Source: Patescibacteria group bacterium (GTDB lineage: Bacteria; Patescibacteriota; Microgenomatia; UBA12405). Taken from it: DNA of 54,348 bases. The notes under the pieces were generated by a model. The model was not told the origin of the DNA and searched no databases. It saw nothing but the letters and a program-made list of their open reading frames with translations. The stretch is taken from NCBI GenBank assembly GCA_038062455.1, contig JBBTXE010000001.1, forward strand, positions 316,371 through 370,718. The letters are read 5' to 3'. This document shows, piece by piece, positions 18,835-54,348 of this stretch (position 1 is the first letter of the stretch; every line of letters starts with the position of its first letter). The position numbers and the translations under genes were made by a program.

Positions 18835-19840
18835 ATTTATCCGTCAGCTTCAAAACGACCCTGACATCAACTGGGAAATTTATTACATCGGCCGGATTCA
18901 CAATTCCGGTGTCAACTCCACCCCCGCCATTGAGTCAAAATTAATTTCCAAAATTAAAATTAAATATTTTGGAATTGACTGCGGCAAATTCGACCGACGT
19001 TGGTTTCCCAACACTTTAAGCGGAATACCTCAAACATTTTCAGCTTTTTTTAAAGCTTTCCGAATCCTGGAACTTATTGAACCCCATCTGGTCTTATCGT
19101 TTGGTGGATACCTTTCCGTACCGGTAGTTTTCGCCGCCGCTATCAAAGGCATTCCTTCCGTCACCCACGAACAAACACCCACCCTAAGCCTTTCTACCCG
19201 CCTCAACAGTCTTTTTTCCAAATATGTCGCCTTATCATTTCCGCCGTCATCCCCGCGCAAGCGGGGACCTAAATACATCGTCACCGGTAATCTACTTCGA
19301 CAAGCAATATTTTCCCAAAAAAGCCCGATCTTCACTAAACTAAAGATTGACAAACCTATTATCTATGTCACCGGTGGTAACCAGGGATCTCTGTCTATAA
19401 ACAATCTCCTAAAAAAATCTCTACCTTTACTTACTAAAAATTATTTTATTATTCACCAGTACGGTCAAAAATCCAAGCCCAAAACTTCCCAAAACTATTT
19501 GCCCCTTGCCTATATTAACAGTCAAAATATTGGTTGGGTATTAAACCGCGCCTCCCTAATAATCAGTCGGGCCGGCGCCAATACCTGTCAGGAAATTGTG
19601 GCGCTTAAAATCAAATCAATTCTGATACCTTTGTTAACCAGTCAACAGGACGAACAGTTAAAAAACGCTGATTATGTTAAATCTCTTCAGCCGGACATCA
19701 CTATTATTATTCCTGAAAAAAATTTAAATCCCAAAATATTACAAGAAAGCATTGCCAAACTATTAATTATTAATTCTCCCAAAAGCTCTCCGGTAGCCCA
19801 AGAAAATCTCAAACTACTCAAACTCATTAAAACCATCTAA
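18779..19840 (+). CDS. murG: Lipid II GlcNAc transferase
   Basis: ITGTH, SFGGYLSVP, HEQT, VTGN, YVTGGNQGS, ISRAGANT, EQLKNA. Confidence 0.92.
   Translation: MPRSKKIVITGTHLTPALEFIRQLQNDPDINWEIYYIGRIHNSGVNSTPAIESKLISKIKIKYFGIDCGKFDRRWFPNTLSGIPQTFSAFFKAFRILELIEPHLVLSFGGYLSVPVVFAAAIKGIPSVTHEQTPTLSLSTRLNSLFSKYVALSFPPSSPRKRGPKYIVTGNLLRQAIFSQKSPIFTKLKIDKPIIYVTGGNQGSLSINNLLKKSLPLLTKNYFIIHQYGQKSKPKTSQNYLPLAYINSQNIGWVLNRASLIISRAGANTCQEIVALKIKSILIPLLTSQQDEQLKNADYVKSLQPDITIIIPEKNLNPKILQESIAKLLIINSPKSSPVAQENLKLLKLIKTI
19246..19270. repeat. REP-like palindrome, in frame inside murG
   Basis: GTCA-TCCCCGC-GCAA-GCGGGGA-CCT; same family as the copies at 52602, 53888, 53952 and 54327. Confidence 0.75.
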
Positions 19841-19849
19841 AATCAATCT

Positions 19850-21094
19850 ATGCAACGCTCTCGTCTTTTTACTTCAATCGACATCGGCACCTTCAAAATA
19901 ACTACTTTAATTGGCCAGTATTTTGACACCGGTCAAAAACTTAATATTATCGGTGCCGCCTCCGTTCCCGCCTCCGGCTTTAAAAAAGGCCAAATCATCA
20001 ACCTTGAACAGGCCTCTCATACCATCACCGAATCAATCGAATCCGCCGAAAGAATGGCCGGGGTTGAAATTAATTCCGCCTTTATCTCCCTGACAGCTCC
20101 CCATTTTGAATCTCTAAATTCCCACGGGGTGACTGCTGTCGGCAACCAAAACGGTGAAATCTCCACCGAAGATATCACCCGTGCCGTCGAAGCGGCCAAA
20201 GCCATTGCTCTCCCTGGCAACAAAGAGATAGTTCACATTATTCCTCGGGTCTTTAATGTCGACGGTCAGGAGGGAATTATCGACCCAATTGGCATGAACG
20301 GGGTTCGTCTCGAAGTTGAAGCTCATTTGATTTTGGCCTCCACCCCGGCCTTAAAGAACCTAAACAAGTGTCTCGAAGATATCGGCATTAAAACTATTTC
20401 CCTGGCCTACTCCGGTTTAACTGCCGCTAAGGCCTGCCTCTCGGAGACCGAAACCGAATTGGGAGTAGCCCTGGTTGATATCGGAGGCAGTAACACCACC
20501 ATCACCCTTTTTTCCGAAAACTCACCCCTGTTTTCCTCTTGTTTGCCCATTGGCGCCAACAATATTACTGCCGATCTGGCCATTGGGCTTCGCCTGCCTT
20601 TAGTCGATGCCGAAAAAATCAAAATTCGTCTGAATCATTTCTCCGAAAAGAAAGGTTTTGAAGATGAAATCGACCTCCAGCAATTTGGAGTAATTGGGGA
20701 CAATAACAAAATTTCTTTTTCTACCACCCTAAACGGAATAATCAAACCCCGCTTAAATGAAATCATCGGTCTGGTTTGGAACGAAATATGCTCTCATGGA
20801 TATCAAAGCTCAATTCCCGCCGGCTTGGTTCTCACTGGTGGGGGAGCCGAAACTCTGGAAATCAAAAATGTGGCTTCAGAAATTATTCCTTTGCCGGTTC
20901 GTATCGGAGAACCCCCCAAAGTTGGTGGAATTGTCGATGATATAACCAACCCCTCTTACAGCAGCGCCATCGGCGCCCTTCTCTTTTTTGCCAACTCCAA
21001 ACTGGCTTCCAAAAGTTCATCCCGCCAGATTAATTTTCCTTTAAGCGGAATTCTGGGAAAAATTAAAACTTTTCTTGAACCACTTTTACCCTAA
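19850..21094 (+). CDS. ftsA: Cell division protein FtsA
   Basis: IDIGTFKI, IESAERMAG, GVRLEVEAH, LVDIGG, AEKIK, VLTGGGA, PVRIG. Confidence 0.95.
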   Translation: MQRSRLFTSIDIGTFKITTLIGQYFDTGQKLNIIGAASVPASGFKKGQIINLEQASHTITESIESAERMAGVEINSAFISLTAPHFESLNSHGVTAVGNQNGEISTEDITRAVEAAKAIALPGNKEIVHIIPRVFNVDGQEGIIDPIGMNGVRLEVEAHLILASTPALKNLNKCLEDIGIKTISLAYSGLTAAKACLSETETELGVALVDIGGSNTTITLFSENSPLFSSCLPIGANNITADLAIGLRLPLVDAEKIKIRLNHFSEKKGFEDEIDLQQFGVIGDNNKISFSTTLNGIIKPRLNEIIGLVWNEICSHGYQSSIPAGLVLTGGGAETLEIKNVASEIIPLPVRIGEPPKVGGIVDDITNPSYSSAIGALLFFANSKLASKSSSRQINFPLSGILGKIKTFLEPLLP

Positions 21095-21097
21095 TCT

Positions 21098-22231
21098 ATG
21101 GGACTAGTTAAAACACTAACCGGCCAGTTTGCCAAAATAAAAGTCTTGGGTATCGGTGGCGGCGGCAACAACGCCATCAATTCCATGATCGCCGAAGACA
21201 ATATCAAAGGAGTCGACTTTATTGCCGTCAACACTGACTCTCAGGCCCTCCTCAACTCCAAAGCCCCGATTAAAATCCAAATTGGAGAAAAACTTACCAA
21301 AGGTTTAGGAGCCGGCGGTGATCCTCAAATTGGTCAACAGGCCGCTGAAGAGTCCCGGCAACGGTTAAAAGAAGTCATTGAAGACACCGACATGCTTTTT
21401 ATTACCGGCGGCATGGGTGGAGGCACCTGCACCGGCGCCGCTCCGATTATTGCCGAAATTGCCAAAAAAGAACTGGGGATTTTAACCATTGCCGTAGTTA
21501 CCAAACCCTTCCTCTTCGAAGGTACCCGCCGGATGAGCCGGGCCGAAGAAGGCGTTGCCCGGCTTCGTCAATTTGTCGATACCTTGATTGTGATCCCTAA
21601 TCAAAAAGTTATGGAGGTGGTCAATTCAGAGGCTACCCTGCTTGAAGCCTTTAGAACTGCCGATTCTGTTCTTAATAAAGGTACCAAAGCCATTGCTGAT
21701 CTGATTACCGTTCCCGGCCTCATCAATCTCGATTTTGCCGACATCAAATCAGTTATGAGCAATGCCGGCTCAGCTCTGATGGGAGTTGGTGAAGCAGAGG
21801 GGGTCGGCAAAGCCAAAAAAGCGGTTGAAGCTGCTATTGCTTCACCCTTAGTTGAGGTCGATATTAACGGTGCTCGTGGCGTTCTGATCAATATCACCGG
21901 CGGTCCCGATATCACTATGGCTGAAATCGAAGAAGCCGCTAAAATCATCACTTCTCATGTTGCCCCTGATGCTAATATTATCTTTGGCGCCTCGATCGAC
22001 GAAAACCTGACCGGTAAAATAAAAATCTCGGTAATTGCCACCGGCTTTGATTCGTCTAAATCAGCTTATCAAAACTATAAAAAAACTACAATTTCAACCG
22101 ATCTTTTGGATGAAAAACCAAAGCCCCTGTCGCCAGAATTTCAAAACCTTCTTAAAGACCAAACCATTCCCGAAGGTGTTGATATCGAAGACGAGTTCGA
22201 CATCCCCGCCTTTTTGCGCAAAAATCAATAG
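21098..22231 (+). CDS. ftsZ: Cell division protein FtsZ
   Basis: GIGGGGNNA, GGMGGGTCTG tubulin motif, NLDFAD, C-terminal DIPAFLRK. Confidence 0.97.
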   Translation: MGLVKTLTGQFAKIKVLGIGGGGNNAINSMIAEDNIKGVDFIAVNTDSQALLNSKAPIKIQIGEKLTKGLGAGGDPQIGQQAAEESRQRLKEVIEDTDMLFITGGMGGGTCTGAAPIIAEIAKKELGILTIAVVTKPFLFEGTRRMSRAEEGVARLRQFVDTLIVIPNQKVMEVVNSEATLLEAFRTADSVLNKGTKAIADLITVPGLINLDFADIKSVMSNAGSALMGVGEAEGVGKAKKAVEAAIASPLVEVDINGARGVLINITGGPDITMAEIEEAAKIITSHVAPDANIIFGASIDENLTGKIKISVIATGFDSSKSAYQNYKKTTISTDLLDEKPKPLSPEFQNLLKDQTIPEGVDIEDEFDIPAFLRKNQ

Positions 22232-22252
22232 TTATGTTAAAATAATCCCAAT

Positions 22253-22435
22253 ATGTCAATTGAAGAAAAACCCAAACAAACCCCTACCTTAACCAAAGCA
22301 TCAACAAGACTTGCCGCAGGAATTAATGAAATTTTTAAAGCATATGAAAATTCTCTTCCTAAAAGTTCAACCCCAAAACCAGGCAAAGTATCTGATGTAA
22401 CAGAACAACAATCAGCCCAAATATCTAAACCATAA
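22253..22435 (+). CDS. Small hypothetical protein (60 aa)
   Basis: Fills the gap after ftsZ; preceded by TGTTAAAAT at about 22235. No recognisable motif. Confidence 0.4.
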   Translation: MSIEEKPKQTPTLTKASTRLAAGINEIFKAYENSLPKSSTPKPGKVSDVTEQQSAQISKP

Positions 22436-22504
22436 TTATGCAAAATAATATCAATTCTCAAAATTTAATTATTCTTTAGCTCCGGATTTTTTCCGGAGCC
22501 ATTC

Positions 22505-22528
22505 AATCCCGCACCAGCGGGATTTTTT
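22505..22528 (+). terminator. Intrinsic terminator-like hairpin
   Basis: AATCCCGC-ACCA-GCGGGATT followed by a T tract, downstream of the ftsZ operon. Confidence 0.6.
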
Positions 22529-22595
22529 GATTCGACGTACATTATACGAATCAATCCGCCTCTGGCGGATAATTACAAATAAATTATAATAAACT

Positions 22596-25379
22596 ATGGC
22601 TTACTTTAAGGAATTACCATCAAATCCCAATTTTCCTGAAATGGAAAGAGAAATTCTTTCCTGGTGGCAGGAAAACGACATTGTCAACAAATATCTTCAT
22701 AAAAACGATGATTCCTCCAAAATCTTTTCATTTATTGACGGTCCCATCACCGCCAATGCCCCCATGGGGGTTCACCATGCCCGCGGCCGAACCATTAAAG
22801 ATGTCTTCCAAAGATACAAAAATTTAGCCGGATTCCAGCAACGTTTTCAAAACGGTTTTGATTGTCAGGGGTTGTGGGTTGAGGTGGAAGTCGAAAAAGA
22901 TGCCGGATTTAACTCCAAAAAAGACATTATTAATTTTGGCCTCGAAAAATTTACCAATGCTTGCCTTGATCGCGTCTCTAAATATTCCCAACTTCAAACC
23001 GAACAATCTAAGCGTCTTGGTTACTTCATGGATTGGGACAATAGTTATTACACCAACTCCAAAGAAAATAACCTTTATATCTGGCACTTTTTTAAATTAA
23101 TTTCGGAAAAGGGGTGGTTAGTTAAAAGAAAAAGCGCCGCCACCTGGTGCCCCCGCTGTGAAACCGGTCTCTCCCAACATGAACAAGCTGATGGTTACAA
23201 AAATATTACCGATACTTCCGTCTATTTGAAATTCAAACTTAAGAACAAAGATAATGAATATGTCTTGGCCTGGACCACTACTCCCTGGACCTTATCAGCC
23301 AATGTTCTTTTAGCCATCAACACCAAATTTGAATATGTCAAAGCCAAATATGAAGGTTCCGTTCTTTATCTGGCCCGCCTCGCCGCTGATCGGCTTAAAT
23401 TAACTGACTACGAATCCATCGATGCCCAAAAACTTGTCGGACTTGAGTATGAACCCCTTTACGATATTCCCGCCCAAAATAATATTAAACACCATATTAC
23501 TAACTGGAAATTAGTCGATCCGACAGAGGGTACCGGCATTGTTCATATTGCTCCCGGCTGCGGTCAGGAAGATTTCGAACTTGGAAAAGTTTTAAAAGCC
23601 CCCATGCCCTCACCCCTTGACGAAACCGGCCATTTTACTTCCGATTACGGGGATCTTTCCGGCCTTTACGCCCATGATGTTGCCCCGTTAGTTTTTGAAT
23701 ATCTAAAACGACAGAATTTATTATTTAAAACCGAACTGGTTACTCATCGCTATCCTCACTGTTGGCGCTGCCATACCAAATGTCTTTTCCGTCTCGAAGA
23801 CAGCTGGTATATCGACACCAATCAAATCCGGCCGCTTATGAAAAAAGCTGCCGCCACCGTCAATTGGCATCCCAAATTTGTCGGCCGGCGGATGCAAAAC
23901 TGGCTTGATTCCATGGAAGATTGGATGATTAGCCGTAAACGTTTTTATGGCTTAAGCCTGCCTTTTTATGAATGTGACTGTGGTCAACTCACTGTTGTCG
24001 GCAGTTTAGAAGAATTGGAAAAACTGGCAATTGACCCCAAACCGATCAAAAACCTCATCTCTCTTCATCGACCTTGGATTGATGAAATAAAAATCAAGTG
24101 CTCCAAATGCGGTCAAAGTGTCAACCGGGTTCCCGATGTCGGTGATTGTTGGCTCGACGCCGGTATCATTCCTTTTTCTACCCTCAAATATTTAAGCGAT
24201 AAAAACTATTGGCGGAAATGGTTTCCGGCCGAATTAGTTACTGAAATGACCGAACAAGTCCGTCTCTGGTTTTATTCCCTGCTCTTCTTTAGTGTCACCT
24301 TTGAAAACACCACTTCTTATCAAAATGTGGTTACCTATGCCGAAGTCCGCGACGAACATGGAGAGCGAATGAGCAAAACCAAAAAAAATGGCCTTCCTTT
24401 TGATGACGCTGTTGCCAAGATGTCAGCCGATGCCATGCGCTGGCTCTATTGTCTCCAAAAATCCAGCTCAAATGTCAATTTTGGATATCGAATTGCTGAC
24501 AGTGTCAAACGTGAATTTATCCTTATTTTATGGAACTCCTATCGTTTTTTCACTCAACACGCCAATTTGGAAAATTGGCATCCTAATTCAGACGTCATTG
24601 CGAGCGTAACGAAGCAATCTAATATCCTCGACCTCTGGCTTCTCTCCCGACTCAATAGTACGATAAATCAAGTCACTAAAAGCTTAGATAAATATTCCAC
24701 CGCTAAGGCTACTAAAAACCTTCAATCTTTTGTTACCGATCTTTCCACCTGGTACATCCGTCGCTCCCGTACCCGATCTGATAATTTAAATCTTCTTTAT
24801 TACGTTTTTAGAAAAATCTCAACCTTGATTTCCCCTTTTATACCCTTTTTAAGCGAAACAATTCACCGTAATTTATCCACTCCCGTTCTTTCTGTCCACC
24901 TTGAAAACTGGCCCAAAGCTGAAACCAAACAAATTGATTCCGCCCTGGAAACCCAAATAAATCTTGCCCGAAAAATCTGCCAATTAATTCACGCCGAACG
25001 TCAAAGTGCCGTTATCAAAATCCGTCAACCGCTCTCTTCGGCCGCGGTCACTTGTCCCCAAAGTCTCTCCCCGGATTTAATCGACATCATTAAAGAAGAA
25101 ACTAATGTTAAAAAAATTATCATTTCCGCCTCTGACAAACTCAAGGCCACCCTGGATACCACTCTCACTCCCGAACTTTTAGCCGAAGGTGAATACCGCG
25201 ACTTCGTCAGAGAGATTCAAGTCATGCGGAAAAATGCCGGCCTTCTTATTACCGACCAAATCTCTATCAGTGCCCCTTCCTGGCCTAATACTTTCGAAAG
25301 AGAAATTCTTGCTAAAACTCTAGCCGTTTCCGTTACCAAAAGTAATACCCTGTCTATTAAAAAAGTCAATGCTTCTTAA
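22596..25379 (+). CDS. ileS: Isoleucine--tRNA ligase, type 2
   Basis: DGPITANAPMGVHH, GFDCQGL, WTTTPWTL, GTGIVHIAPG, DWMISRKR, RMSKT, WYIRRSR. Confidence 0.95.
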   Translation: MAYFKELPSNPNFPEMEREILSWWQENDIVNKYLHKNDDSSKIFSFIDGPITANAPMGVHHARGRTIKDVFQRYKNLAGFQQRFQNGFDCQGLWVEVEVEKDAGFNSKKDIINFGLEKFTNACLDRVSKYSQLQTEQSKRLGYFMDWDNSYYTNSKENNLYIWHFFKLISEKGWLVKRKSAATWCPRCETGLSQHEQADGYKNITDTSVYLKFKLKNKDNEYVLAWTTTPWTLSANVLLAINTKFEYVKAKYEGSVLYLARLAADRLKLTDYESIDAQKLVGLEYEPLYDIPAQNNIKHHITNWKLVDPTEGTGIVHIAPGCGQEDFELGKVLKAPMPSPLDETGHFTSDYGDLSGLYAHDVAPLVFEYLKRQNLLFKTELVTHRYPHCWRCHTKCLFRLEDSWYIDTNQIRPLMKKAAATVNWHPKFVGRRMQNWLDSMEDWMISRKRFYGLSLPFYECDCGQLTVVGSLEELEKLAIDPKPIKNLISLHRPWIDEIKIKCSKCGQSVNRVPDVGDCWLDAGIIPFSTLKYLSDKNYWRKWFPAELVTEMTEQVRLWFYSLLFFSVTFENTTSYQNVVTYAEVRDEHGERMSKTKKNGLPFDDAVAKMSADAMRWLYCLQKSSSNVNFGYRIADSVKREFILILWNSYRFFTQHANLENWHPNSDVIASVTKQSNILDLWLLSRLNSTINQVTKSLDKYSTAKATKNLQSFVTDLSTWYIRRSRTRSDNLNLLYYVFRKISTLISPFIPFLSETIHRNLSTPVLSVHLENWPKAETKQIDSALETQINLARKICQLIHAERQSAVIKIRQPLSSAAVTCPQSLSPDLIDIIKEETNVKKIIISASDKLKATLDTTLTPELLAEGEYRDFVREIQVMRKNAGLLITDQISISAPSWPNTFEREILAKTLAVSVTKSNTLSIKKVNAS

Positions 25380-26370
25380 AAACCGCTTTTTTCCTTTAAG
25401 TATTTCTCTTCTCATCTTTTTAACCATCAACCTTTTAATGGTCAGCTCTCTTGCCCCTCAAGTGTTATTAAAACAATCACTCGCCTGGATGGTCGGTATT
25501 TTCTTGTTCTTTATCGGCACCCAAATTAACCCTAAGCAAATTTCCGGCAACCGTTGGCCTATTTTTATAATTTCCTGCATTCTTCTTTTGCTTCCCCTAA
25601 TTCTGGGGAATATCACTAGAGGATCCCGCCGCTGGATCGATATCGGCCAAATCTCTCTTCAACCTAGTGAAATTGTCAAACCCGGACTGATGTTATTTTT
25701 GGCTTCAGGAAAATACTCTCTCCTTCATCTGCTCCCGGTGGCCATCATCATAGCTCAACCAGATTTAGGCAGTGCCCTTACCGTTTTGGTACTACTTATT
25801 CCTGTTGTCCTCTATACCCCAAAACTCCTGAAACTGTCATTACTTTTAGCCTTATTTGGCCTAATACTCTCCCCCATTACTTGGCGCTTTTTGCTTCACA
25901 ACTATCAAAAAAACCGGATCGAAACATTTTTAAACCCAACCCATGATCCTCTCGGCCAAGGTTACAATCTGATTCAATCACAAATTGCTGTCGGTTCAGG
26001 CGGCTTTTTTGGTAAAGGCTATCGGCAGGGGACTCAAGGACAACTTCTTTTTCTCCCTGAAAAACACACTGATTTTATTTTTGCCGCCACCTCTGAAGAA
26101 CTTGGCCTCGTTTCAATTCTACTTATATTCCTGGCTTACTTCCTCCTTCTTCGGACTCTCCTCAATAAAGCTTTTAACACCCTTAATAATCGCCCCCTTT
26201 TTCTTTTTACTCTCGGCATCACCCTCGAAATTTGGATTCAAATGGTAGTCAATGTCGGCATGAACATCGGCCTTCTGCCAATTACCGGCATTCCTCTGCC
26301 CTTTCTCTCGGTCGGCGGTTCCTCACTTTTAGCCCTTCTTTTTTCCCTGGGAATTATTTATTCCTCCTGA
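25369..26370 (+). CDS. rodA: SEDS protein RodA
   Basis: GSRRWI, QPSEIVK, QPDLGSA, YQKNRIETFLNP, QSQIAVGSGG, LPEKHTDFIF, ITGIPLPFLSVGGSS. Confidence 0.88.
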   Translation: MLLKNRFFPLSISLLIFLTINLLMVSSLAPQVLLKQSLAWMVGIFLFFIGTQINPKQISGNRWPIFIISCILLLLPLILGNITRGSRRWIDIGQISLQPSEIVKPGLMLFLASGKYSLLHLLPVAIIIAQPDLGSALTVLVLLIPVVLYTPKLLKLSLLLALFGLILSPITWRFLLHNYQKNRIETFLNPTHDPLGQGYNLIQSQIAVGSGGFFGKGYRQGTQGQLLFLPEKHTDFIFAATSEELGLVSILLIFLAYFLLLRTLLNKAFNTLNNRPLFLFTLGITLEIWIQMVVNVGMNIGLLPITGIPLPFLSVGGSSLLALLFSLGIIYSS

Positions 26371-26372
26371 TT

Positions 26373-26414
26373 ATACTTAATACTTAATACGTAATACCTG
26401 ATACTTGTTACTGA
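26373..26414. repeat. Degenerate heptamer array (ATACTTA-type, 5-6 units)
   Basis: ATACTTA ATACTTA ATACGTA ATACCTG ATACTTG between rodA and rplU. Confidence 0.7.
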
Positions 26415-26416
26415 TA

Positions 26417-26425
26417 TGTTATAAT
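26417..26425 (+). promoter_or_regulatory. Extended -10 promoter (TGTTATAAT) for rplU
   Basis: Ends 8 nt before ATG 26434. Confidence 0.6.
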
Positions 26426-26433
26426 CTCCAGGT

Positions 26434-26742: not shown

Positions 26743-26796
26743 TTTTGAGTTTTACGAAATCCTGTGGACATAATTTATAATTCGTAATTAATTTAC

Positions 26797-42369: not shown

Positions 42370-42472
42370 TGACCGAGTCGCGTTTGACGCGACCGAAATG
42401 AAACAAACTCAATATTATTTCTGACCGAGTCGCGTTTGACGCGACCGAAATGAAACAAACTCAATATTATTT
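42370..42472 (+). repeat. Tandem duplication of 51 bp (period 52) containing a hairpin and the GIY-YIG start codon
   Basis: TGACCGAGTCGCGTTTGACGCGACCGAAATGAAACAAACTCAATATTATTT at 42370-42420 and 42422-42472. Confidence 0.92.
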
Positions 42473-42737
42473 CGTGTACATTCTTTTTTGCTATGGAAAT
42501 GGTCATTTATACATCGGATTCTCATCAAACTACAAACAAAGATTGCTTAAACACCAACAGGGGAAAGTGACCTCAACTAGAAAAAGTTTACCTGTAGAAT
42601 TAATTTATCTCGAGGTGTTTAAAAATATTAAAGACGCTAAAAGTCGTGAGGTGTATTTAAAAAGCGGTAATGGCCGAAAACAACTAAAAGAAATGTTGAA
42701 GAACACTTTAATTGAAAAAAACTATAAATATTTATGA
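42450..42737 (+). CDS. Stand-alone GIY-YIG nuclease
   Basis: YFVYIL...HLYIGFS...RLLKHQQG...ELIYLE...AKSREVYLKSG. Confidence 0.9.
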   Translation: MKQTQYYFVYILFCYGNGHLYIGFSSNYKQRLLKHQQGKVTSTRKSLPVELIYLEVFKNIKDAKSREVYLKSGNGRKQLKEMLKNTLIEKNYKYL

Positions 42738-44395: not shown

Positions 44396-44445
44396 CCTGA
44401 AATTCCATTTTAACAGAATTTATATCCCACCACAATCAAATAATT

Positions 44446-44454
44446 TGATAAAAT
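44446..44454 (+). promoter_or_regulatory. Extended -10 promoter (TGATAAAAT), probably the original tRNA-Glu promoter
   Basis: Ends 9 nt before the first tRNA 5'-like fragment at 44464. Confidence 0.5.
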
Positions 44455-44463
44455 ATCAGCCAC

Positions 44464-44824
44464 GGCTCCACCGTTGCCGACCTGGCTCCATCGTTGCCGG
44501 TTGCAGCAAAGCTGCACCGAGCATTCTCGGTCCGGCTAAAGCCGAGACCGGAACTAGTGGCTTAAGCAACATGCATTGCTGTTACATTCTTAAATCCTTC
44601 ACTGATAATTCGTATTATGTGGGGTCTACCAACAACTTAACCAATCGTCTCAATTTTTACAACCGGGGAAAATCCCGATATACCAAAAGAAAAATACCTT
44701 GGGTTTTGATATACTCAGAATGCTTTTCAACCCTATCTTTGGCAAGAAAAAGGGAATATCAATTAAAGTCTTGGAAGAATAGGGATTCATTGGAAAGATT
44801 AATCAAAAAATCTGGCTCCATCGT
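44464..44824 (+). mobile_element. Putative GIY-YIG cassette inserted in the 5' end of tRNA-Glu
   Basis: CTGGCTCCATCGT at 44482-44494 is identical to 44812-44824 (tRNA 5' end); hairpin cluster and nuclease gene lie between them. Confidence 0.6.
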
Positions 44825-44828
44825 CTAG
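44571..44828 (+). CDS. Stand-alone GIY-YIG nuclease
   Basis: CYILKS..DNSYYVGSTNNLTNRL...RYTK...WVLIYSE...ARKREYQLKSWK. Start ATG 44571; stop lies inside tRNA-Glu. Confidence 0.88.
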   Translation: MHCCYILKSFTDNSYYVGSTNNLTNRLNFYNRGKSRYTKRKIPWVLIYSECFSTLSLARKREYQLKSWKNRDSLERLIKKSGSIV

Positions 44829-46680: not shown

Positions 46681-46907
46681 AAAAAGTCGGCTCGAACATT
46701 CCGCTGAAAGCGGAACAAAGAAAAACGCAAAAATTTTAAAGAGCTTTTATCAACTTAAATGGCGCAACCGGTGGTATCAGCAAGAATTGCGTCTCACTGT
46801 CCGATTGCGCCATTAAAAAAAGCAATTTCAATAATAACTGAGTCCAATATAACTATACTAAAAATGAACAAAAAAAGAAAGAATTTAATACTTGATTTCT
46901 AAAAAAG

Positions 46908-46916
46908 TGATATAAT
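46908..46916 (+). promoter_or_regulatory. Extended -10 promoter (TGATATAAT) for the cargo gene
   Basis: Ends 9 nt before ATG 46926. Confidence 0.6.
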
Positions 46917-46925
46917 AAACTCTAT

Positions 46926-47585
46926 ATGGAATCATTTCTTTTTGTTTTGGGAGCCTTATTCGTTGTAACGTTCGTAATACTGTATTTTTGGAGCGTTGTT
47001 TGGAGCTATAAGGATGCTTCAATTAGAGGTAAGAACGGTTTCGCGGTAGCGACTTTGGTTGCGCTGTTCGCATGGCCATTTGGTTTATTGTTTTGGACCA
47101 TCATTCGTCCTGAAAATGTTAAGCTAAAAGATAGCCCCTCGGCTATTAAAAAAAATACCCAACCTAACAAGTACATATCTGATTTTAAAGAAATGCCTTT
47201 TTTGTTAAAAATCCTTTTTCTAATTAGTGTATATTCATTCGTCACCACACTATTGAATTTTATTCAGATGAAACCTGTTGTCTTTGAGTATTTTAATACA
47301 GGATTTCCAAAAAACTTTCCTCTAATCTGGTATTCATACTACCTACTATTTAACATTTTTACGATAATAGTATATTTCAAACGATCTTATTCCGTTTTGA
47401 AAAAATATCTGTATGTAACTCTAGGCGTTTTAGTCGTTGCTTTACTTAACTCAATTTACTTCGTAATTAATCTTCCTGTAGAACAAAGATTTGCTACCAC
47501 CTTAGTGTATCTATTTACCTATATCTTTGGTGGTTTAATCTTCATATACCAACTCAAGCAAAAGAAGTATTTTAATCAAGCTTAA
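46926..47585 (+). CDS. Hypothetical polytopic membrane protein (cargo between the inverted repeats)
   Basis: About 6 hydrophobic segments; N-terminal W.YKDA..RG..G motif; own promoter and a 3' hairpin at 47612-47630. Confidence 0.75.
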   Translation: MESFLFVLGALFVVTFVILYFWSVVWSYKDASIRGKNGFAVATLVALFAWPFGLLFWTIIRPENVKLKDSPSAIKKNTQPNKYISDFKEMPFLLKILFLISVYSFVTTLLNFIQMKPVVFEYFNTGFPKNFPLIWYSYYLLFNIFTIIVYFKRSYSVLKKYLYVTLGVLVVALLNSIYFVINLPVEQRFATTLVYLFTYIFGGLIFIYQLKQKKYFNQA

Positions 47586-47653
47586 ATCTTTTTTGGACTT
47601 ATATTATTTCATTGTTTGCTTCGCAAACAAAAATCGCGCGCGCAAAAAATGAG

Positions 47654-47762
47654 CGGAGGCGCGGCGGGTGGGGGCGCCGCGCTGGAGTGCGAGCCGAGCA
47701 GGGCGAAGCGAGCTAGCACGAATCTTTGAAATGCGTTCGAATTTGTTCAAAAACGTTCACCA
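47654..47762 (-). repeat. 109-bp inverted repeat, right arm
   Basis: Reverse complement of 46572-46680. Confidence 0.92.
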
Positions 47763-47788
47763 ACTATATCCATCTGCGGTATCATTAA

Positions 47789-49570
47789 TTGATGGCAAAC
47801 GATTCTAAGTCCCTAAAAACCATTTTTAAAAACACCGCCTGGTGCCTTAGGTTAATCTATCGGAGCAATAAGGTATTATTCACTGGCGTTTTTATTTTCG
47901 GCATCTTTGTTTCCGTCGTCCCCTTTTTCCAAAACCGAGTTTTTTCCCAACTCATCGATAGTTTAGTTTATGGCCAAACTTACTGGATAACCACCTTCTT
48001 TTTGTTTATTGGTATCATGGCCCTAAACTCAACCTTTTTTTATCTTCAAAGTCAGCTAAACCGGGTTCTCGATATCCAACTTCAAGCCCATCTCCGCAAA
48101 CTATTCATCGGCAAAGTCACCACTCTTGACTATCAACACCTAGAAGGTAAGGACACTAGTAATTTAATCTCCAAAGTGGACGAAGAATTTGGCTGGCGAA
48201 TCCGCCAGACCCTTTCCGACGCCAACAGCATCTTTACCAGTCTTCTAAGCCTTCTGACTGTTTCTATAATTCTTCTACCGAAATTCCCCTTTCTTTGGTT
48301 AATTATTTTTTTAAGTCAAGTTCCTCAATACTTTTTTCAAAAACATTGGGTCCAAAAAGACTGGCAAATCCATGAGAAAAACAGCGATAAAACCAAATTA
48401 ATGTGGGATCTTAACTATCAGCTTCGCCAAAAGTTCTACATTTCTGAACTAAGAATTAACAACGCTATTAAATATCTATTCAAAAAATTTTCTGATAACT
48501 TTGATTTTTTTGCCATTTCCCGAACTACCCTTCGGATCCAACAAACCCCCACCGAATTCGGCCTGATCACCTTTTCCACCTTAATTAACGCCTTTTGTCT
48601 CTATACTCTAATTTCCAGCACCCATTCAGGTCTAATCACCATTGGCCTCTTCACCTTTTACTTCCAATCAATTACCCAAACCGGCAATTTCTTCCGGGGC
48701 CTTGTTTTTAGCTCTGTCAGTGTTACTGAAAATAGTTATCATATCGGCAACTTTAAAAAAGTACTTAATTTAAAAAATTTAATTAAAAGCGGATCCAAAC
48801 TTGTTCCTCGTCCCCACCCCCCCAAAATTGAATTTATTAACGTTAGTTTTAAATATCCCAATTCCAGCCACTATGTCTATCGCCACCTCAATCTAACCAT
48901 CAACCCTCAAGAGGAAATTGCCATTGTCGGTCAAAATGGGGCCGGTAAAAGTACTCTTATCAAACTCTTGTGTCATTTTTATGAACCCAGCTCCGGAAAA
49001 ATCCTTATCAATGGCATCGATTTAAGACAATTAAAACTCGAAAACTGGTATCACCAACTTTCCTTTTTGGCTCAAGAATTTAACAGTTTCTACAACTTAA
49101 CCCTCCGCGAAAATATATTTTTGGGCCGGCCCCAAAAAATCAACAATCAAAAAATTATGGCAGCCTTAAAACAAGCCGATGCCACCTTTATCAAAAGATA
49201 CCCCCGGAACTTAGATACTCCCATGAGCCAGCGTTATGGCGGCGAAGAACCCTCCTGGGGACAAGCCCAAAAAATTGCCATCGCCCGGGTTTTTTATCGT
49301 AATAGCCCAATAATTGTCTTAGATGAACCCACTGCTTCTATCGACGCTATTTCTGAAAGTAAAATTTTTAGCCGGCTTTATAAAACTATTAAAAACAAAA
49401 CCTTAATTATCGTCTCTCACCGTTTTTCAACTGTCAGAAACGCCCAACGGATTATCGTTATCAATCATGGTCAAATCATTGAACAGGGGACTCATCGGCA
49501 ACTTCTAGCCCTCAAAGGTCTCTACGCCCGCTCTTTTCATCTCCAAGCCAAAGGTTATACTCAAGAATAA
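47789..49570 (+). CDS. ABC exporter (fused TMD-NBD)
   Basis: TM domain, Walker A GQNGAGKST, Q-loop LAQE, variant signature PSWGQ, Walker B IIVLDEPT, H-loop VSHR. Confidence 0.92.
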   Translation: MMANDSKSLKTIFKNTAWCLRLIYRSNKVLFTGVFIFGIFVSVVPFFQNRVFSQLIDSLVYGQTYWITTFFLFIGIMALNSTFFYLQSQLNRVLDIQLQAHLRKLFIGKVTTLDYQHLEGKDTSNLISKVDEEFGWRIRQTLSDANSIFTSLLSLLTVSIILLPKFPFLWLIIFLSQVPQYFFQKHWVQKDWQIHEKNSDKTKLMWDLNYQLRQKFYISELRINNAIKYLFKKFSDNFDFFAISRTTLRIQQTPTEFGLITFSTLINAFCLYTLISSTHSGLITIGLFTFYFQSITQTGNFFRGLVFSSVSVTENSYHIGNFKKVLNLKNLIKSGSKLVPRPHPPKIEFINVSFKYPNSSHYVYRHLNLTINPQEEIAIVGQNGAGKSTLIKLLCHFYEPSSGKILINGIDLRQLKLENWYHQLSFLAQEFNSFYNLTLRENIFLGRPQKINNQKIMAALKQADATFIKRYPRNLDTPMSQRYGGEEPSWGQAQKIAIARVFYRNSPIIVLDEPTASIDAISESKIFSRLYKTIKNKTLIIVSHRFSTVRNAQRIIVINHGQIIEQGTHRQLLALKGLYARSFHLQAKGYTQE

Positions 49571-50559
49571 TGCCAAATACTTTTCAAAGTTCAATTCCTA
49601 ATAAAATTCAACAATATCTTTCAGACCAACTCCAAAGTCTGAAAAAATCTTCCAATATTAACCCTGGTTCCCAAGATCTTTCCTCTTTCATTTATCAAGC
49701 CCTAACTACTACTAAGTATCGCCGCCACTCCATTTCCCTTGAATATCAGACCCACATAAAAAACGTTATTGGTTTCTCAATAAAAAACAATCGACCTATC
49801 CCTTTAGTTTGGGTCTTTGGTTGTTACAAACTTTGGCGACTTCCAGAATCGCCTTATGTCGATTGGGCTGAGCTTTTCTTTTTAATCCATAAGGTCAATT
49901 GGCTTAGGCCTGTCCTGGAGGTATATAAACCCGGAATTTGGTTTGATTTTTTTGCCGACGGCATTGTTGTCCCACTACTAAATCATATTCCCGAATCAGA
50001 TATGGATACCTATCAAGAGAGTTTTAAAGACTTGCTGACAATTTTTGAAAAATATATACCCAAAAATTTAAAATTCACCCTACACACTCTCGAAAAACTT
50101 TATAGTTCAAAAAAAGATTTTCAAAAAGAATTTAAGACAAATTACGATATTGTTGTCCAACAAGATAAAACAAATCCTTTTATTTTATCTGACCAGCAGA
50201 AATCAGTTATCAAAATGAACGTCAAATCAGACAAAGAACTAAGTGAGGCCAAATTACATCAATCCCAATTAATTTTCGAAGCCTTTGTTTTAAGCTCTAA
50301 ACGCCGGCCATATTATCGAACCCCTGATAAAATTTTTTTGGACAGTTTTCCCATAAAAAATTGCCTTCCCATTGGCACCACCCGAACCTCCTCTGTCAGG
50401 TTTTGGGTAGGCAAGGGGGTGTTAGAAAAACACCAAGACTCATTTATAGAAACCATTCTATCTGTCAATCAAGTCCAAAACTCCCGATTCTCAAGTTGCT
50501 CTGTTAATCTCCCTGATTTTGACAACCCAAATTATAAATCGATCAGTATTTTAAAATAA
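49570..50559 (+). CDS. Divergent PvcA/Dit1 (isonitrile synthase)-like protein
   Basis: PIPLVWVFGCYK...VDWAE...VYKPG...FADG...MDTYQ parallels PvcA PIxFVLPAFPxK...PDMAE...FYAPG...CSDG...AYQ. Start overlaps the ABC stop. Confidence 0.5.
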   Translation: MPNTFQSSIPNKIQQYLSDQLQSLKKSSNINPGSQDLSSFIYQALTTTKYRRHSISLEYQTHIKNVIGFSIKNNRPIPLVWVFGCYKLWRLPESPYVDWAELFFLIHKVNWLRPVLEVYKPGIWFDFFADGIVVPLLNHIPESDMDTYQESFKDLLTIFEKYIPKNLKFTLHTLEKLYSSKKDFQKEFKTNYDIVVQQDKTNPFILSDQQKSVIKMNVKSDKELSEAKLHQSQLIFEAFVLSSKRRPYYRTPDKIFLDSFPIKNCLPIGTTRTSSVRFWVGKGVLEKHQDSFIETILSVNQVQNSRFSSCSVNLPDFDNPNYKSISILK

Positions 50560-51179
50560 TGCTTTACATTTTTCATGGCGATGATCTATACCACAGCCGG
50601 GAAGCCCACCAAAATTTTCTTGATCAATTTAAAGACAAAGAAATTCTGCGCCAGGAATACAAAGACTTTGATTTTGAATTACTAAACCTTTTTGTCAACT
50701 CTCCCTCCCTTTTCCAAAACACGCGGATTCTCGCCCTCTACTCTCCCTTTTCTCTTCTAAAAAACCAATTAGAAACGCTGTCTTCCCTTATAAAAGAAAA
50801 TCAGTACACTGACACCGTTATCTGGCAGGACCGGCCTCTTCGTCAAAACGAAGTTTCTTTTTTTGGCCCAGCCAAGCTTCAAAAGTTTCCCTTAGACAAA
50901 CAGCTTTTTTTCTGTCTGAATTCCCTAAAACCTCGAAATCACCGTCTCTTTACCCAAATATTTTTAAAAGTCATCAAACAGGAACCATTTGAACTGGTCT
51001 TTTTTTGGTTTAAAAACCGTCTCCGCCAAAATTTGTCATCTTTTTCCCCTTTTCCGCCAGAAAAGCTCAAATCAAGCTATCTAGCCCTGATTGACCTTGA
51101 TTATCAAATTAAAACCGGCGCTCTTTCGGAGCCCAAAGAAAACGCCCTCCTCAATCTCCTTTTTAATCTAATGTCTTAG
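50559..51179 (+). CDS. holA: DNA polymerase III delta subunit-like
   Basis: MLYIFHGDD, SPSLF, C-terminal LIDLDYQIKTG. Confidence 0.7.
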   Translation: MLYIFHGDDLYHSREAHQNFLDQFKDKEILRQEYKDFDFELLNLFVNSPSLFQNTRILALYSPFSLLKNQLETLSSLIKENQYTDTVIWQDRPLRQNEVSFFGPAKLQKFPLDKQLFFCLNSLKPRNHRLFTQIFLKVIKQEPFELVFFWFKNRLRQNLSSFSPFPPEKLKSSYLALIDLDYQIKTGALSEPKENALLNLLFNLMS

Positions 51180-51211
51180 TATCGCCTCTTTTTTTCTGGT
51201 ATCATTTTTTA

Positions 51212-51613
51212 ATGTCCCCAAAAATTATCAAACCCTGGGGGTTTGAAATTCTGACTACTCCAAAAGATCTCCCTTATTCCGGCAAAATTTCTTTTACTCA
51301 AGCCGGCCATCGTTGGTCACTCCAATATCACGACCAAAAAATTGAAACTCTGGTTCTCCTTTCCGGCCAAGCCAATCTAAGCCTCGGTCCAGACCCCAAT
51401 TCTCTCGTCACCCTCCCCATGGAAATAAATCAAGAATACACCATTAAACCCCCAACTATCCACCGTTTTCAAGCAATTACCAATTGTGTCACTGTTGAAT
51501 TTTCCACTCCGGAAACCGGTACCACCATCCGCCTGGAAGACGACGATTCCCGTCCCAATGAAACAGACGCCACCAGATTATTACCCAACCGTGGTTGGCA
51601 ACCGCCAAAATAA
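51212..51613 (+). CDS. Cupin (mannose-6-phosphate isomerase C-terminal-like)
   Basis: KPWGFE, WSLQYHDQKIET, IKPPTIHR, VEFSTPE. Confidence 0.75.
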   Translation: MSPKIIKPWGFEILTTPKDLPYSGKISFTQAGHRWSLQYHDQKIETLVLLSGQANLSLGPDPNSLVTLPMEINQEYTIKPPTIHRFQAITNCVTVEFSTPETGTTIRLEDDDSRPNETDATRLLPNRGWQPPK

Positions 51614-51614
51614 T

Positions 51615-53918
51615 ATGAAAACCCCTGCCCTTATTTGGTTTAAAGATATTAAATTCGCAGATGTCGCTGTTGTCGGCGGCAAAGGTGCTAATTTAGGAGA
51701 AATGTATAGTCTCGGTATCCCCGTCCCCAACGGTTTTGTCGTCACCGCCAAAACCTACTTTGACTTTATCGACACTAATAGTCTAAAACCTCAAATAAAA
51801 AACATTTTAGACTCGGCTAATGTTGACCATCCCGACGAATTACTGACTGCCTCCAAAAAAATCAAAACCATTATCAAAAAAGCCCCGATTCTCGATAGTG
51901 TCGCCATTGAAATTATGACTGCCTACAAAAAGTTGGGGGGCTTTGGCGGTCTGAAAGATTTACCGGTGGCGGTCAGATCATCGGCTACCGCCGAAGACAG
52001 TGCCGATGCCTCTTTTGCCGGCCAACAGGAAACCTTTCTCAATGTTATCGGCGAAACTAATGTCCTAAATCGGGTTCGTGATTGCTGGGCCTCGCTTTTT
52101 ACCCCCCGGTCAATTTTTTACCGGGTCAAAAAAAATTTTGATCACTTCAAAGTTGGTGTAGCCGTTCCGGTTCAAAAAATGGTTCAAAGTGACATTTCCG
52201 GAATTATGTTCACTGTCAATCCGGTCTCCAACACCAAAAATGAAATTGTGATTGAAACCGTCTGGGGTCTTGGTGAATATATAGTTCAGGGAATTATCAC
52301 CCCTGACCAACACATTATCAACAAATCAACCTGGGAAATCCAATCCAAAAATTCGACTTTTCAGGACCGGCAGTTAGTCAAATCCGAAAACGAAACCCAC
52401 GAAGCCAAAGTTCCTAAATACAAACAAAATAAATTCAAAATCGATGATCGGACCGCCGTTAAGATAGCTAAGATTGGCCAAAAACTCCATAACCACTACG
52501 GCAAAGCCCAGGACATTGAATTTGCCATCGAAAAGGGTAAATTATTTATTGTTCAAACCCGACCCATTACTACCTTAAACAATGTCAATCTCGCTAACAC
52601 TGTCATCCCCGCGGACGCGGGGACCCCATTCTTAATTGGAGAGGCTGCCAGCCCCGGATTTGCCTCAGGACCGGTAATCCTTATTGATAGTCCCAAAGAA
52701 ATTAACCGTGTAGTTTCCGGCCAAATTATGGTCATCAGCATGACCACCCCCGATTTTGTTCCCGCCATGAAAAAAGTTTCCGGAATAATTACCGACAAAG
52801 GCGGCCAAACCTCTCACGCCGCCATCGTTTCCCGGGAATTAGGAGTTCCCTGTGTTGTCGGCACTAAAACCGCTACCAAAGAATTAAAGGAAGGGGATAT
52901 CGTCACTCTAGACGGTGCCAGTGGCCGAATTTGGAAAGGAGATCTAACCGAAAGTAACCCTCAAATTCCCAAAGATCTAGAGCTCCATAGCTCTAAAGCT
53001 CTACTAAAAACTGCCACTAAGCTTTATGTTAATTTAGGTGAACCGGAACTGGCCAAAGATATCAGTAAAAAAAATGTTGACGGGGTCGGGCTTCTGCGGG
53101 CTGAATTCATGATGGCCAACATCGGCATCCACCCCAAGCGGATGATCTCTGAAGGTAGAGAAAAAGAATATATTGAAACTCTGGCTAAGGGGATTCTCGA
53201 ATTTTGCAAAAATTTTAATCCCCGGCCGGTTCTTTATCGAACTACTGACTTTAAAACTAATGAATACCGCTTTCTCCGCTACGGTAAACTCTACGAACCG
53301 GAAGAACCCAATCCTCTTTTAGGTTTTCGCGGCGCTATCCGCTATATTAATTCCCCTGAAGTCTTTCAAATGGAACTGGAGGCCGTCAAGGTAGTCCGAA
53401 ACCGCTTTAGTCTAAAAAATCTCTGGCTGATGATTCCTTTTTGCCGTACTCCCGGGGAACTTTTCGAAGTTAAAAAAATAATCGCCGCCGCCGGACTGCT
53501 CCGCAGCCCCAGTTTCAAACTTTTCATGATGGCCGAAATCCCCAGCAATGTCATTCTTCTTGATAAATTTATTGACGTCGGCATCGACGGTATTTCTATT
53601 GGCAGCAACGATTTAACTATGTTGACTCTGGGTCTTGACCGCGACAATTCTGAAGTCGCCAAAGGTTTCAGTGAAATGGATCCGGCCATACTTTGGAGCT
53701 TAAAAAGATTAATTACTAAAGCCAAAAAACGGGGCATTTTAGTCTCTATCTGCGGCCAGGCGCCAAGTAATTATCCTGAACTCGTCGAAAAATTAGTTAA
53801 GTGGGGAGTTAGTAGTATCTCCGTTTCCCCTGATGCGATTGACCGCACCCGCGAAATTATCTCCTGGGCCGAAAAAAGAAAAATTCTATCCCCGCGAAAG
53901 CGGGGATCCACACTCTGA
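51615..53918 (+). CDS. ppsA: Phosphoenolpyruvate synthase (pyruvate, water dikinase)
   Basis: VGGKGANLGEM, VAVRSSATAED, QDIEFA, VQTRPIT, GGQTSHAAIVSRELG (phospho-His), GVGLLRAEF, SIGSNDLT. Start ATG 51615. Confidence 0.95.
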   Translation: MKTPALIWFKDIKFADVAVVGGKGANLGEMYSLGIPVPNGFVVTAKTYFDFIDTNSLKPQIKNILDSANVDHPDELLTASKKIKTIIKKAPILDSVAIEIMTAYKKLGGFGGLKDLPVAVRSSATAEDSADASFAGQQETFLNVIGETNVLNRVRDCWASLFTPRSIFYRVKKNFDHFKVGVAVPVQKMVQSDISGIMFTVNPVSNTKNEIVIETVWGLGEYIVQGIITPDQHIINKSTWEIQSKNSTFQDRQLVKSENETHEAKVPKYKQNKFKIDDRTAVKIAKIGQKLHNHYGKAQDIEFAIEKGKLFIVQTRPITTLNNVNLANTVIPADAGTPFLIGEAASPGFASGPVILIDSPKEINRVVSGQIMVISMTTPDFVPAMKKVSGIITDKGGQTSHAAIVSRELGVPCVVGTKTATKELKEGDIVTLDGASGRIWKGDLTESNPQIPKDLELHSSKALLKTATKLYVNLGEPELAKDISKKNVDGVGLLRAEFMMANIGIHPKRMISEGREKEYIETLAKGILEFCKNFNPRPVLYRTTDFKTNEYRFLRYGKLYEPEEPNPLLGFRGAIRYINSPEVFQMELEAVKVVRNRFSLKNLWLMIPFCRTPGELFEVKKIIAAAGLLRSPSFKLFMMAEIPSNVILLDKFIDVGIDGISIGSNDLTMLTLGLDRDNSEVAKGFSEMDPAILWSLKRLITKAKKRGILVSICGQAPSNYPELVEKLVKWGVSSISVSPDAIDRTREIISWAEKRKILSPRKRGSTL
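52602..52628. repeat. REP-like palindrome, in frame inside ppsA
   Basis: GTCA-TCCCCGC-GGAC-GCGGGGA-CCCCA, encoding VIPADAGTP. Confidence 0.75.
53888..53910. repeat. REP-like palindrome forming the ppsA C-terminus
   Basis: ATCCCCGC-GAAA-GCGGGGAT-CCA, encoding SPRKRGS. Confidence 0.8.
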
Positions 53919-53951
53919 AATTTGCACCACTACCTGTTAGCAACGAGCTTC

Positions 53952-53997
53952 GTCATTCCCGCGAAAACGGATGTCACCCTCGCGTATGCGGGGGCCT
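53952..53997. repeat. Two degenerate REP-like copies
   Basis: GTCATTCCCGCGAAAACGG and GTCACCCTCGCGTATGCGGGGGCCT. Confidence 0.75.
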
Positions 53998-54001
53998 ATA
54001 T

Positions 54002-54292
54002 CTACATCAATATTTTTTCATACAAATCATTCCAATCTTTATTTTGCTTCTCAATCAACTCAATTTTCCAAATTCTTCTCCATTTTTTCAATTGTTTTTC
54101 TCTTTTAATTGCTTGATTTATATTGTTATGTTCTTCAAAGTAAACCAACCCATGAACACCATACTCTTTTGTAAATCCATCGATAATTTCATTTCTATGT
54201 TCAAATACTCTTCTTTTTAGGTCAGATGTCACTCCAATATACAATGTCCCATTTTTTCTACTTGCCATCATATATACAAAACAATTTTTCAT
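54002..54292 (-). CDS. Stand-alone GIY-YIG nuclease (REP-flanked type)
   Basis: FVYMMASRKNGTLYIGVTSDLKRRVFEH...GFTKEYGV..LVYFE...AIKREKQLKKWRR.WKIELIE..N..WNDLY. Confidence 0.93.
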   Translation of the reverse strand: MKNCFVYMMASRKNGTLYIGVTSDLKRRVFEHRNEIIDGFTKEYGVHGLVYFEEHNNINQAIKREKQLKKWRRIWKIELIEKQNKDWNDLYEKILM

Positions 54293-54326
54293 TATTTAAA
54301 AATTAGCATACTTTAGCAACACGCCT

Positions 54327-54348
54327 GTCATTCCCGCGAACGCGGGAA
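54327..54348. repeat. REP-like palindrome at the window end
   Basis: GTCA-TTCCCGC-GAAC-GCGGGAA, cut by the window edge. Confidence 0.85.

Follow-up and report, generated by a model that had tools for sequence, protein, structure and literature searches.

What are the short palindromes that are read in frame within murG and, twice, within ppsA of a patescibacterium, and how did they come to lie inside genes for essential enzymes? The question is raised by a window of 54,348 nucleotides (by which we mean the whole stretch that was analysed) from a Patescibacteria group bacterium (GTDB lineage Bacteria; Patescibacteriota; Microgenomatia; UBA12405; GenBank assembly GCA_038062455.1, contig JBBTXE010000001.1), which corresponds to C1:316371-370718 of a 665-kb assembly of 8 contigs with 41% G+C, and which ends just beyond a gene for a small GIY-YIG protein. 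A preliminary description placed palindromes of one family in murG (19246), in ppsA (52602 and 53888) and, flanking it, next to the terminal GIY-YIG gene, likened them to dRS3 of Neisseria, and proposed that active spread of the repeat is creating new peptide segments in essential enzymes. Our comparisons indicate that the palindromes are probably hairpin repeats of the family described as the Neisseria Transformation Sequence (NTS) or, more widely, as Ssn-related motifs (SRM), and that the terminal GIY-YIG gene is probably this genome's ssn, in an NTS-ssn-NTS layout.

The palindromes are present where they had been placed. The pattern YCCCGC-N4-GCGGGR has five matches in the window (at 19251, 22507, 52607, 53890 and 54332), while 0.01 would be expected in shuffled sequence, and four of the five have common non-palindromic flanks, GTCAT on the 5' side and A(A/T)CC on the 3' side. 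Across the genome nearly all copies carry GTCAT 5' and A(A/T/C)C(C/T)A 3', which makes the motif an oriented one. The hairpin unit is ~28 nt long with the local consensus GTCATTCCCGCGAAAGCGGGAACCYA; each copy consists of a single hairpin of 24-28 nt, with a stem of 6-8 bp and a folding energy between -6.2 and -10.1 kcal/mol. In contigs assembled from three independent groundwater studies the regions of murG and ppsA show zero differences, and the window copies are therefore not assembly artefacts. The match at 22507, in an intergenic hairpin cluster, has neither flank and stands before a T run; for these two reasons we rejected it as a family member and read it as a terminator-like hairpin. 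That cluster (22440-22580) comprises three consecutive GC-rich hairpins, gctccggattttttccggagc, atcccgcaccagcgggat (followed by the T run) and aatccgcctctggcggat, and is terminator-like as a whole.

The likeness to dRS3 turns out to be more than a likeness, in that the repeat matches the published consensus of the NTS, CGTCATTCCCGCGMAVGCGGGAATCYRG, an oriented form of dRS3 that contains the dRS3 palindrome (Chenal et al. 2025, PMC11893778). In Neisseria and Wolbachia the NTS is bound, and the DNA next to it is cut, by the small GIY-YIG nuclease Ssn, and the ssn genes of many phyla are flanked by SRMs. SsnA, a 94-aa protein with a single GIY-YIG domain (cd10448), binds the NTS and cuts a few nucleotides upstream of it, acting on single-stranded DNA only and on the motif-bearing strand only, with no binding of RNA (PMC11893778). 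What our locus has in common with this system is the motif, nearly letter for letter and including the oriented flanks (TCA on the 5' side and C after the palindrome), a partner of ~95 aa with a single GIY-YIG domain, the NTS-ssn-NTS layout and the co-occurrence of repeat and gene. The features of the window, together with the other genes of the genome that carry a copy, are collected in Table 1.

Table 1. Features of the window and further genes with a copy of the repeat. Positions are those of the window unless a contig is named; NTS/SRM stands for the probable family assignment, PEP for phosphoenolpyruvate and LTD for lamin-tail domains; handles beginning with G are related genomes; a slash marks the end of a prepilin leader.
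Feature	Position	Strand	Sequence or peptide	Genomes with copy	Orthologues without copy	Change at site	Basis or remark
murG, 353 aa	18779..19840	+					Domain search: glycosyltransferase family 28, N- and C-terminal domains intact
NTS/SRM copy in murG, in frame	19245..19272	+	CCGTCATCCCCGCGCAAGCGGGGACCT, read P-SSPRKRGP				Orthologue alignment
ppsA, PEP synthase	51486..53918	+					Domain search: PPDK_N, mobile His domain and PEP-binding domain intact
NTS/SRM copy in ppsA interdomain linker, in frame	52601..52628	+	VIPADAGTP				Orthologue alignment
NTS/SRM copy forming PpsA C-terminal tail	53885..53912	+	LSPRKRGSTL				Orthologue alignment; stop at 53916-53918
Truncated NTS copy	53951..53970	+	CGTCATTCCCGCGAAAACGG				Downstream of ssn; G019 has an intact copy at the same place
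Variant hairpin copy	53972..53999	+	TGTCACCCTCGCGTATGCGGGGGCCTAT				Inside the truncated NTS; sister copy at C5:9596
ssn-type gene, predicted 96-aa single-domain GIY-YIG nuclease	54002..54292	-					PF01541 at residues 4-74, E = 3e-14, no other domain
NTS copy	54326..54348	+					34 nt upstream of ssn; interrupted by the window end, which is a scaffold N gap
RecG			HSRESGNP	This genome; degraded in G006 (HSGNTGNL)	Six others	+15 nt vs G019, G003, G020	
LTD protein			VIPATAGTY	This genome, G019, G003; degraded in G006	G013, G020	+15 nt	
GT39-type glycosyltransferase			SFPRKREPN	This genome only	Others	+15 to +18 nt	
MtaB-like radical SAM enzyme			HSRESGNP	This genome, G019, G003, G021	G006, G015, G005	+15 nt	
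TrmD			DSRFPACRQARRGND	This genome (composite copy); G023 has a separate copy at another point of the loop	Five others	Loop replaced	Antisense
Five tandem type IV prepilins			Leader ...IGSRFRGNDA/FSLIEL	This genome, G019, G003	Repeat-free relatives, short leaders (MKKG/FTLVE, MSKA/FTLIE)	~7 residues longer	Antisense
RNase Y (rny)			AVPATAGTQ				

The ssn-type protein has 7364 homologues of ~95 aa at E <= 1e-10, the closest named one being from Candidatus Shapirobacteria. We examined 80 homologue loci with 54-70% identity from Chloroflexota, Planctomycetota, Pseudomonadota, Bacteroidota, Saccharibacteria and others, and found the same palindrome within 1.5 kb of the gene in 43 of them. Within 200 nt of the gene, 34 of the 80 loci have an oriented copy upstream and 28 have one downstream; 21 loci have both, and 16 of these two-sided loci are inverted pairs. 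Both arrangements occur among the relatives of our genome, with an intact inverted NTS pair directly around ssn in G019 and a direct pair around ssn in G023. Just past the N gap at which our window ends, at C1:370820, lies an inverted NTS half that is identical to the inverted copy flanking ssn in G019.

Repeat and gene were then compared among 41 related genomes. The strict pattern is found in five of these (this genome 12, G019 11, G003 7, G023 15 and G021 1 matches), and the reversed control pattern has zero matches in every one of the 41. Close orthologues of ssn occur in G019 (89% identity) and in G023 (61% identity, with an NTS on both sides), while genomes with remoter Ssn-like genes (42-56% identity) have zero matches to the repeat pattern. 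G006 has neither ssn nor an intact NTS; degraded copies persist in its genes for the LTD protein and RecG, and its MtaB gene shows a gap of 15 nt. Its degraded RecG copy, TCATTCCGGTAATACCGGGAACC, is still nearly palindromic with changes in both arms, and may be a different hairpin variant instead of a product of simple decay.

The palindromes are not confined to the window. A search with the consensus GTCATTCCCGCGAAAGCGGGAACC, in which mismatches were allowed, together with half-site searches, gave 19 copies in the genome, of which 14 are read in frame within open reading frames (ORFs); the remaining five comprise four around the GIY-YIG gene and the variant copy at C5:9596. Three copies match the consensus with zero mismatches. 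The published SRM pattern, when run on this genome, returned nine matches, of which four were unrelated, and missed most true copies; five copies passed the strict SRM pattern (three canonical and two of the variant type), and the rest are 1-6 mismatches from the consensus. The motif is free of stop codons in five of its six reading frames (three sense and two antisense), and the copies read in sense are spread 3, 3 and 2 over the three sense frames, which shows no frame bias. Since non-overlapping ORFs of at least 150 codons cover ~90% of C1, the share of copies within genes shows neither avoidance of genes nor preference for them.

If the repeat has contributed new peptides to these proteins, orthologues from genomes without it should be free of them, and this is what the alignments of MurG and PpsA show. 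In murG, a 27-nt unit occupies the entire variable loop from the conserved ALSFP strand to K-x-V-TGN, with a hairpin of 7 bp at -9.3 kcal/mol. In the AlphaFold model of MurG (pLDDT 89) the loop that runs from strand E149-152 to strand E166-168 contains the peptide, and the pLDDT falls to 77 there. A repeat-derived peptide is found at this loop only in our genome and in G003, and 24 orthologues have neither peptide; the loop varies in length from 18 to 33 nt, and the net change is +3 to +9 nt in our genome and -3 nt in G003 compared to G019. The MurG of G003 has a copy of its own in a different register (SFPRKREPNS), in which the motif's GTCATTCCC falls on the codons for LSFP. Compared with its near relative G019, 21 nt stand there in place of 24 nt, and three codons to the left of the copy are recoded synonymously to the motif flank (CTATCTTTC to TTGTCATTC).

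The two copies in ppsA differ in their distribution. The linker copy, which lies between PPDK_N (residues 61-367) and the mobile domain (411-480), is unique to our genome; G019, G006 and G003 (86-89% identical) read ASGDNQKSIEVSEAPFL at this place, and the net change is +6 nt. The tail copy follows the end of the PEP-utilizers_C domain (residue 793) and is common to our genome and G019; it is missing in G006 (whose PpsA terminates in ...KRKITENN), G013, G007 and G020, and the tail has been replaced. As to the other end of this gene, the listed ORF starts at a GTG (51486) 43 codons before M44, and most orthologues align from residue 41-49 on, for which reason the true start is probably the ATG of M44 at 51615.

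Similar observations were made in the other host genes (Table 1). The net change is -3 to +18 nt overall and is +15 nt in four genes. The RNase Y copy sits in a hypervariable N-terminus of low complexity, in which alignment is uninformative on insertion. Judged from the alignments, the peptides are lineage-specific and derived from the repeat, and they mostly take the place of variable sequence instead of merely lengthening the protein. Of the earlier proposal that spread of the repeat makes new peptides in essential enzymes, the new peptides stand, while plain insertion gives way in most cases to replacement of a loop.

The prepilins deserve separate mention. The type of leader that contains the repeat is MKKEIKSNIGSRFRGNDA/FSLIEL, and the leaders of NTS-free relatives (pilin clusters L138 and L144 of G013, L141 of G023 and L140 of G005) hold other hairpin-derived stretches, for example MNRLPRFARNDVFKSG/FTLIE, ...LADRNDAQG/FSLVE and NPPAGDAGIKNCFTG/FTLIE. 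The cleaved leader is therefore a recurrent landing place for several hairpin families.

How do the copies arise? An identical composite of 42 nt, TCATTCCCGCG-CCGTGCCTGCCGGCAGGCAGG-AAAGCGGGAA, in which the loop of an NTS houses a second palindrome of 21 nt, is found at two places 245 kb apart, once in trmD and once in a pilin leader; copies have therefore been made from copies. Moreover, one and the same loop has been reached independently in different genomes, in MurG by our genome and G003, and in TrmD by our genome and G023. Orthologous sites without a copy contain letters that resemble the flanks of the motif: GATCA^AGAAAATCC in the MtaB gene of G015, AATCA^AAAAAATC in the RecG gene of G019, GTTC^CCTAT in the LTD gene of G020 and CGCAATGAC in the TrmD genes of G015 and G020, although alignment of such short flanks is biased towards finding similarity. 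These empty sites fit a process in which targets are picked by mimicry of the flanks and a short patch is replaced from a template.

The copies also have a pronounced polarity. The top strand of the NTS, which is the strand that Ssn cuts in Neisseria, lies on the C-rich strand in 48 of 53 copies in five genomes. In our genome this holds for 18 of the 19 copies, the exception being the inverted half next to ssn, and in the relatives G019, G003, G023 and G021 for 30 of 34 copies as judged by local skew (binomial p = 8e-10 for 45 of 49, computed before the last copies were found). The polarity is independent of the strand of the host gene, which may be plus (8 copies) or minus (trmD and the pilins). 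If gene orientation were the cause of the strand bias, a ratio of ~55:45 would be expected, based on 74% of coding on the plus strand and on three sense and two antisense open frames, but the observed ratio is 18:1, and we rejected this explanation. The GC skew of C1 (1-461178, 69% of the assembly) lies between -0.07 and -0.43 throughout its 461 kb with no switch, and dnaA is on the 13-kb contig C7, which has no skew switch either. As a rule, the leading strand is G-rich. Under this rule the leading strand would be templated by the cleavable strand. Of the two templates this is the one less exposed in single-stranded form, which would fit selection against self-cutting.

From these observations we propose, tentatively and with more doubt than confidence, that the copies spread by an Ssn-dependent process confined to one replication strand, in which a patch of single-stranded DNA with the hairpin replaces sequence at mimics of the flanks (RTCA ... 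AATCC/CCTAT). New copies would be templated by existing ones in a single-stranded, replication-linked process that depends on Ssn and swaps a short patch at sites already resembling the motif flanks. Because the genome is ~90% coding, new copies probably fall mostly in genes. Stop codons are missing from five of the motif's six reading frames, and copies therefore probably survive wherever ~9 extra or replaced residues are harmless, as in surface loops, interdomain linkers, C-terminal tails and cleaved prepilin leaders. The strand bias could come from this mechanism itself or from selection against cutting of the cell's own exposed strand. Such copying would account for the +15 nt change, the synonymous recoding at LSF in the MurG of G003, the repeated hits on one loop and the near-uniform polarity.

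Several points weigh against the reading as NTS and ssn in general, this proposal included. The empty sites could equally be old copies from which the 15-nt core has been lost by slippage at the hairpin, and loss of the core does occur, as seen from the 15-nt gap in the MtaB gene of G006 within a clade whose other members keep the copy. G003 has seven NTS copies and no ssn was detected in it, in an assembly in which a contig ends inside ppsA so that the expected place is unassembled. C1 has no skew switch and ~74% of its coding bases lie on the C-rich strand, while the G-rich strand carries the 16S rRNA gene (on C8) and most genes of C2. Gene-strand bias and rRNA orientation disagree on the direction of replication, and the cleavable strand may lie on the template of either the leading or the lagging strand. 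No presence/absence variants were seen at the window copies in Logan contigs from four public runs, from which rare variants are dropped and which are thus weak evidence. The 'active' spread of the preliminary description is borne out on an evolutionary scale by the lineage-specific gains and finds no counterpart in these contigs. Finally, although Ssn is a published nuclease, to our knowledge nobody has demonstrated copying or moving of the NTS by it.

A rather doubtful alternative, to which we nevertheless give some weight, is that the hairpins are not selfish and are marks kept by the host. Ssn would then, as has been suggested for Neisseria, cut incoming single-stranded DNA beside the NTS and limit or shape recombination, above all at the tandem pilin genes. 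Housekeeping genes would have acquired their copies as a side effect of the genome's ~90% coding content; these copies would be made and removed by general recombination or by slippage at the hairpins. Bacteria of the candidate phyla radiation (CPR) depend on pili and on DNA uptake, and each of the five tandem pilin genes has a copy at the start of its variable body, as is also the case in G019. In Neisseria, moreover, Ssn lowers transformation by NTS-bearing DNA, and the NTS cluster around genes for surface proteins (PMC11893778). However, the copies in murG, ppsA, recG, trmD, mtaB and rny have no evident tie to the control of recombination, 19 copies in 665 kb is too low a density for the policing of a genome, and the identical composite at two distant sites, together with the repeated independent hits on one loop, points to copying and not to selection at fixed sites.

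We consider it improbable that a different enzyme spreads the hairpins and that Ssn merely recognises them, the candidates being a REP-associated tyrosine transposase (RAYT; Y1, IS200/IS605-like) or one of the eight other GIY-YIG genes of the genome, which has nine. REP (repetitive extragenic palindrome)/RAYT systems and IS200/IS605 use single-stranded hairpins and show a replication-strand bias, and the analogy with these systems has been drawn before (PMC11893778). On the other hand, the gene flanked by the NTS is of the Ssn type both here and in the 21 two-sided loci of other phyla, the presence of the NTS in the relatives tracks a close orthologue of ssn, and none of the other GIY-YIG genes of this genome is flanked by an NTS. 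That the hairpins act in RNA, as attenuators or mRNA-stability elements, or that the peptides are selected protein motifs, is very unlikely indeed: the stems could form in RNA too and the loops are often GNRA-like (GAAA, GCAA), but a single DNA motif is read in four frames as the unrelated peptides VIPAxAGT, SFPRKRE, HSRESGNP and GSRFRGND, its orientation tracks the chromosome strand and not transcription (being antisense in the pilins and in trmD), orthologues manage well in the absence of the peptides, and SsnA does not bind RNA (PMC11893778).

Hairpins of other kinds were observed near small GIY-YIG genes. Two more such genes lie in the window (42377-42446 and 42450-42737; 44445-44828), the first of which is preceded by two copies of a different hairpin, GTCGCGTTTGACGCGAC, 52 nt apart. 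On C8, ~3 kb away from the 16S rRNA gene, a further GIY-YIG gene on the minus strand (C8:15052-15264) stands between the two units (C8:14887 and C8:15279) of a 36-nt direct repeat with the palindrome CCCCGCYGCTGCGGGG. A second palindrome family, CCTGCCGGCAGG, which is read as ..PAGR.. or ..ACRQA.., occurs at C1:178498, C1:423068, C4:30489, C1:448284 and C1:16296; it is nested in the loop of an NTS twice, lies once beside a tRNA-like sequence, and lies once 315 nt from another small GIY-YIG gene (C1:15784-15981).

Coding palindromic insertions are known, as the preliminary description held, from the Rickettsia palindromic elements (RPE), and also from the Coxiella QMITEs (PMC5896051). Like our copies, these are selfish-looking palindromes that lie in frame in housekeeping genes and give rise to loop or C-terminal peptides that orthologues lack. 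They are ~100-150 bp or longer, whereas here the unit is a hairpin of 24-28 nt that alters the length by only -3 to +18 nt net and has an identified partner nuclease; our copies are not elements of ~100-150 bp with terminal inverted repeats, by which RPE and coding MITEs (miniature transposable elements with inverted repeats) are recognised, although they do lie in frame where orthologues have none. With REP/REPIN-RAYT and IS200/IS605 our repeat shares short GC-rich hairpins, an oriented flank, a route through single-stranded DNA, a strand bias and an enzyme gene between two repeats, but the partner of the REPs is an HUH/Y1 transposase and REPs are by definition extragenic, while here the partner is a hydrolytic GIY-YIG nuclease and the copies are mostly intragenic.

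The element family and its partner nuclease have already been described (PMC11893778), and what we report is an unusual lifestyle of a known element in an ultra-small bacterium, not a new kind of system. N. meningitidis has hundreds of NTS, 2% of them in genes (PMC11893778); here 14 of the 19 copies are in frame in genes and nearly all lie on one strand of the chromosome. Unlike the NTS of Neisseria, they also replace loop sequence at sites that are already flank-like. Chenal et al. 2025 (PMC11893778) report no coding copies as a class, no replication-strand bias and no mode of spread. In our literature search the repeat-derived peptides were not found in full text, and the literature searched did not contain the mostly intragenic distribution, the loop-replacement mode, the reuse of the same loops and prepilin leaders or the strand polarity.

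The 2025 study of Ssn left open the role of these nucleases outside Neisseria and the way in which the hairpins multiply, and this genome bears on both. It offers comparative material in the form of filled, empty and decayed orthologous sites, independent hits on the same loop and a copied composite, and its strand bias agrees with an enzyme whose cutting of single-stranded DNA is limited to one strand. For annotation, the peptides VIPAxAGT, SFPRKRE, HSRESGNP and GSRFRGND in CPR proteins are to be taken as derived from the repeat and not as functional motifs, and the same applies to the long prepilin leaders of this clade. If the Ssn-dependent copying that we propose is correct, the polarity would in addition hold the cleavable strand out of the DNA that becomes single-stranded during replication, and no DNA units smaller than these hairpins would be known to propagate themselves; they would do so by means of a hydrolytic nuclease instead of a transposase. 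In CPR bacteria they would then be a constant source of new loop peptides in essential enzymes and pilin leaders.

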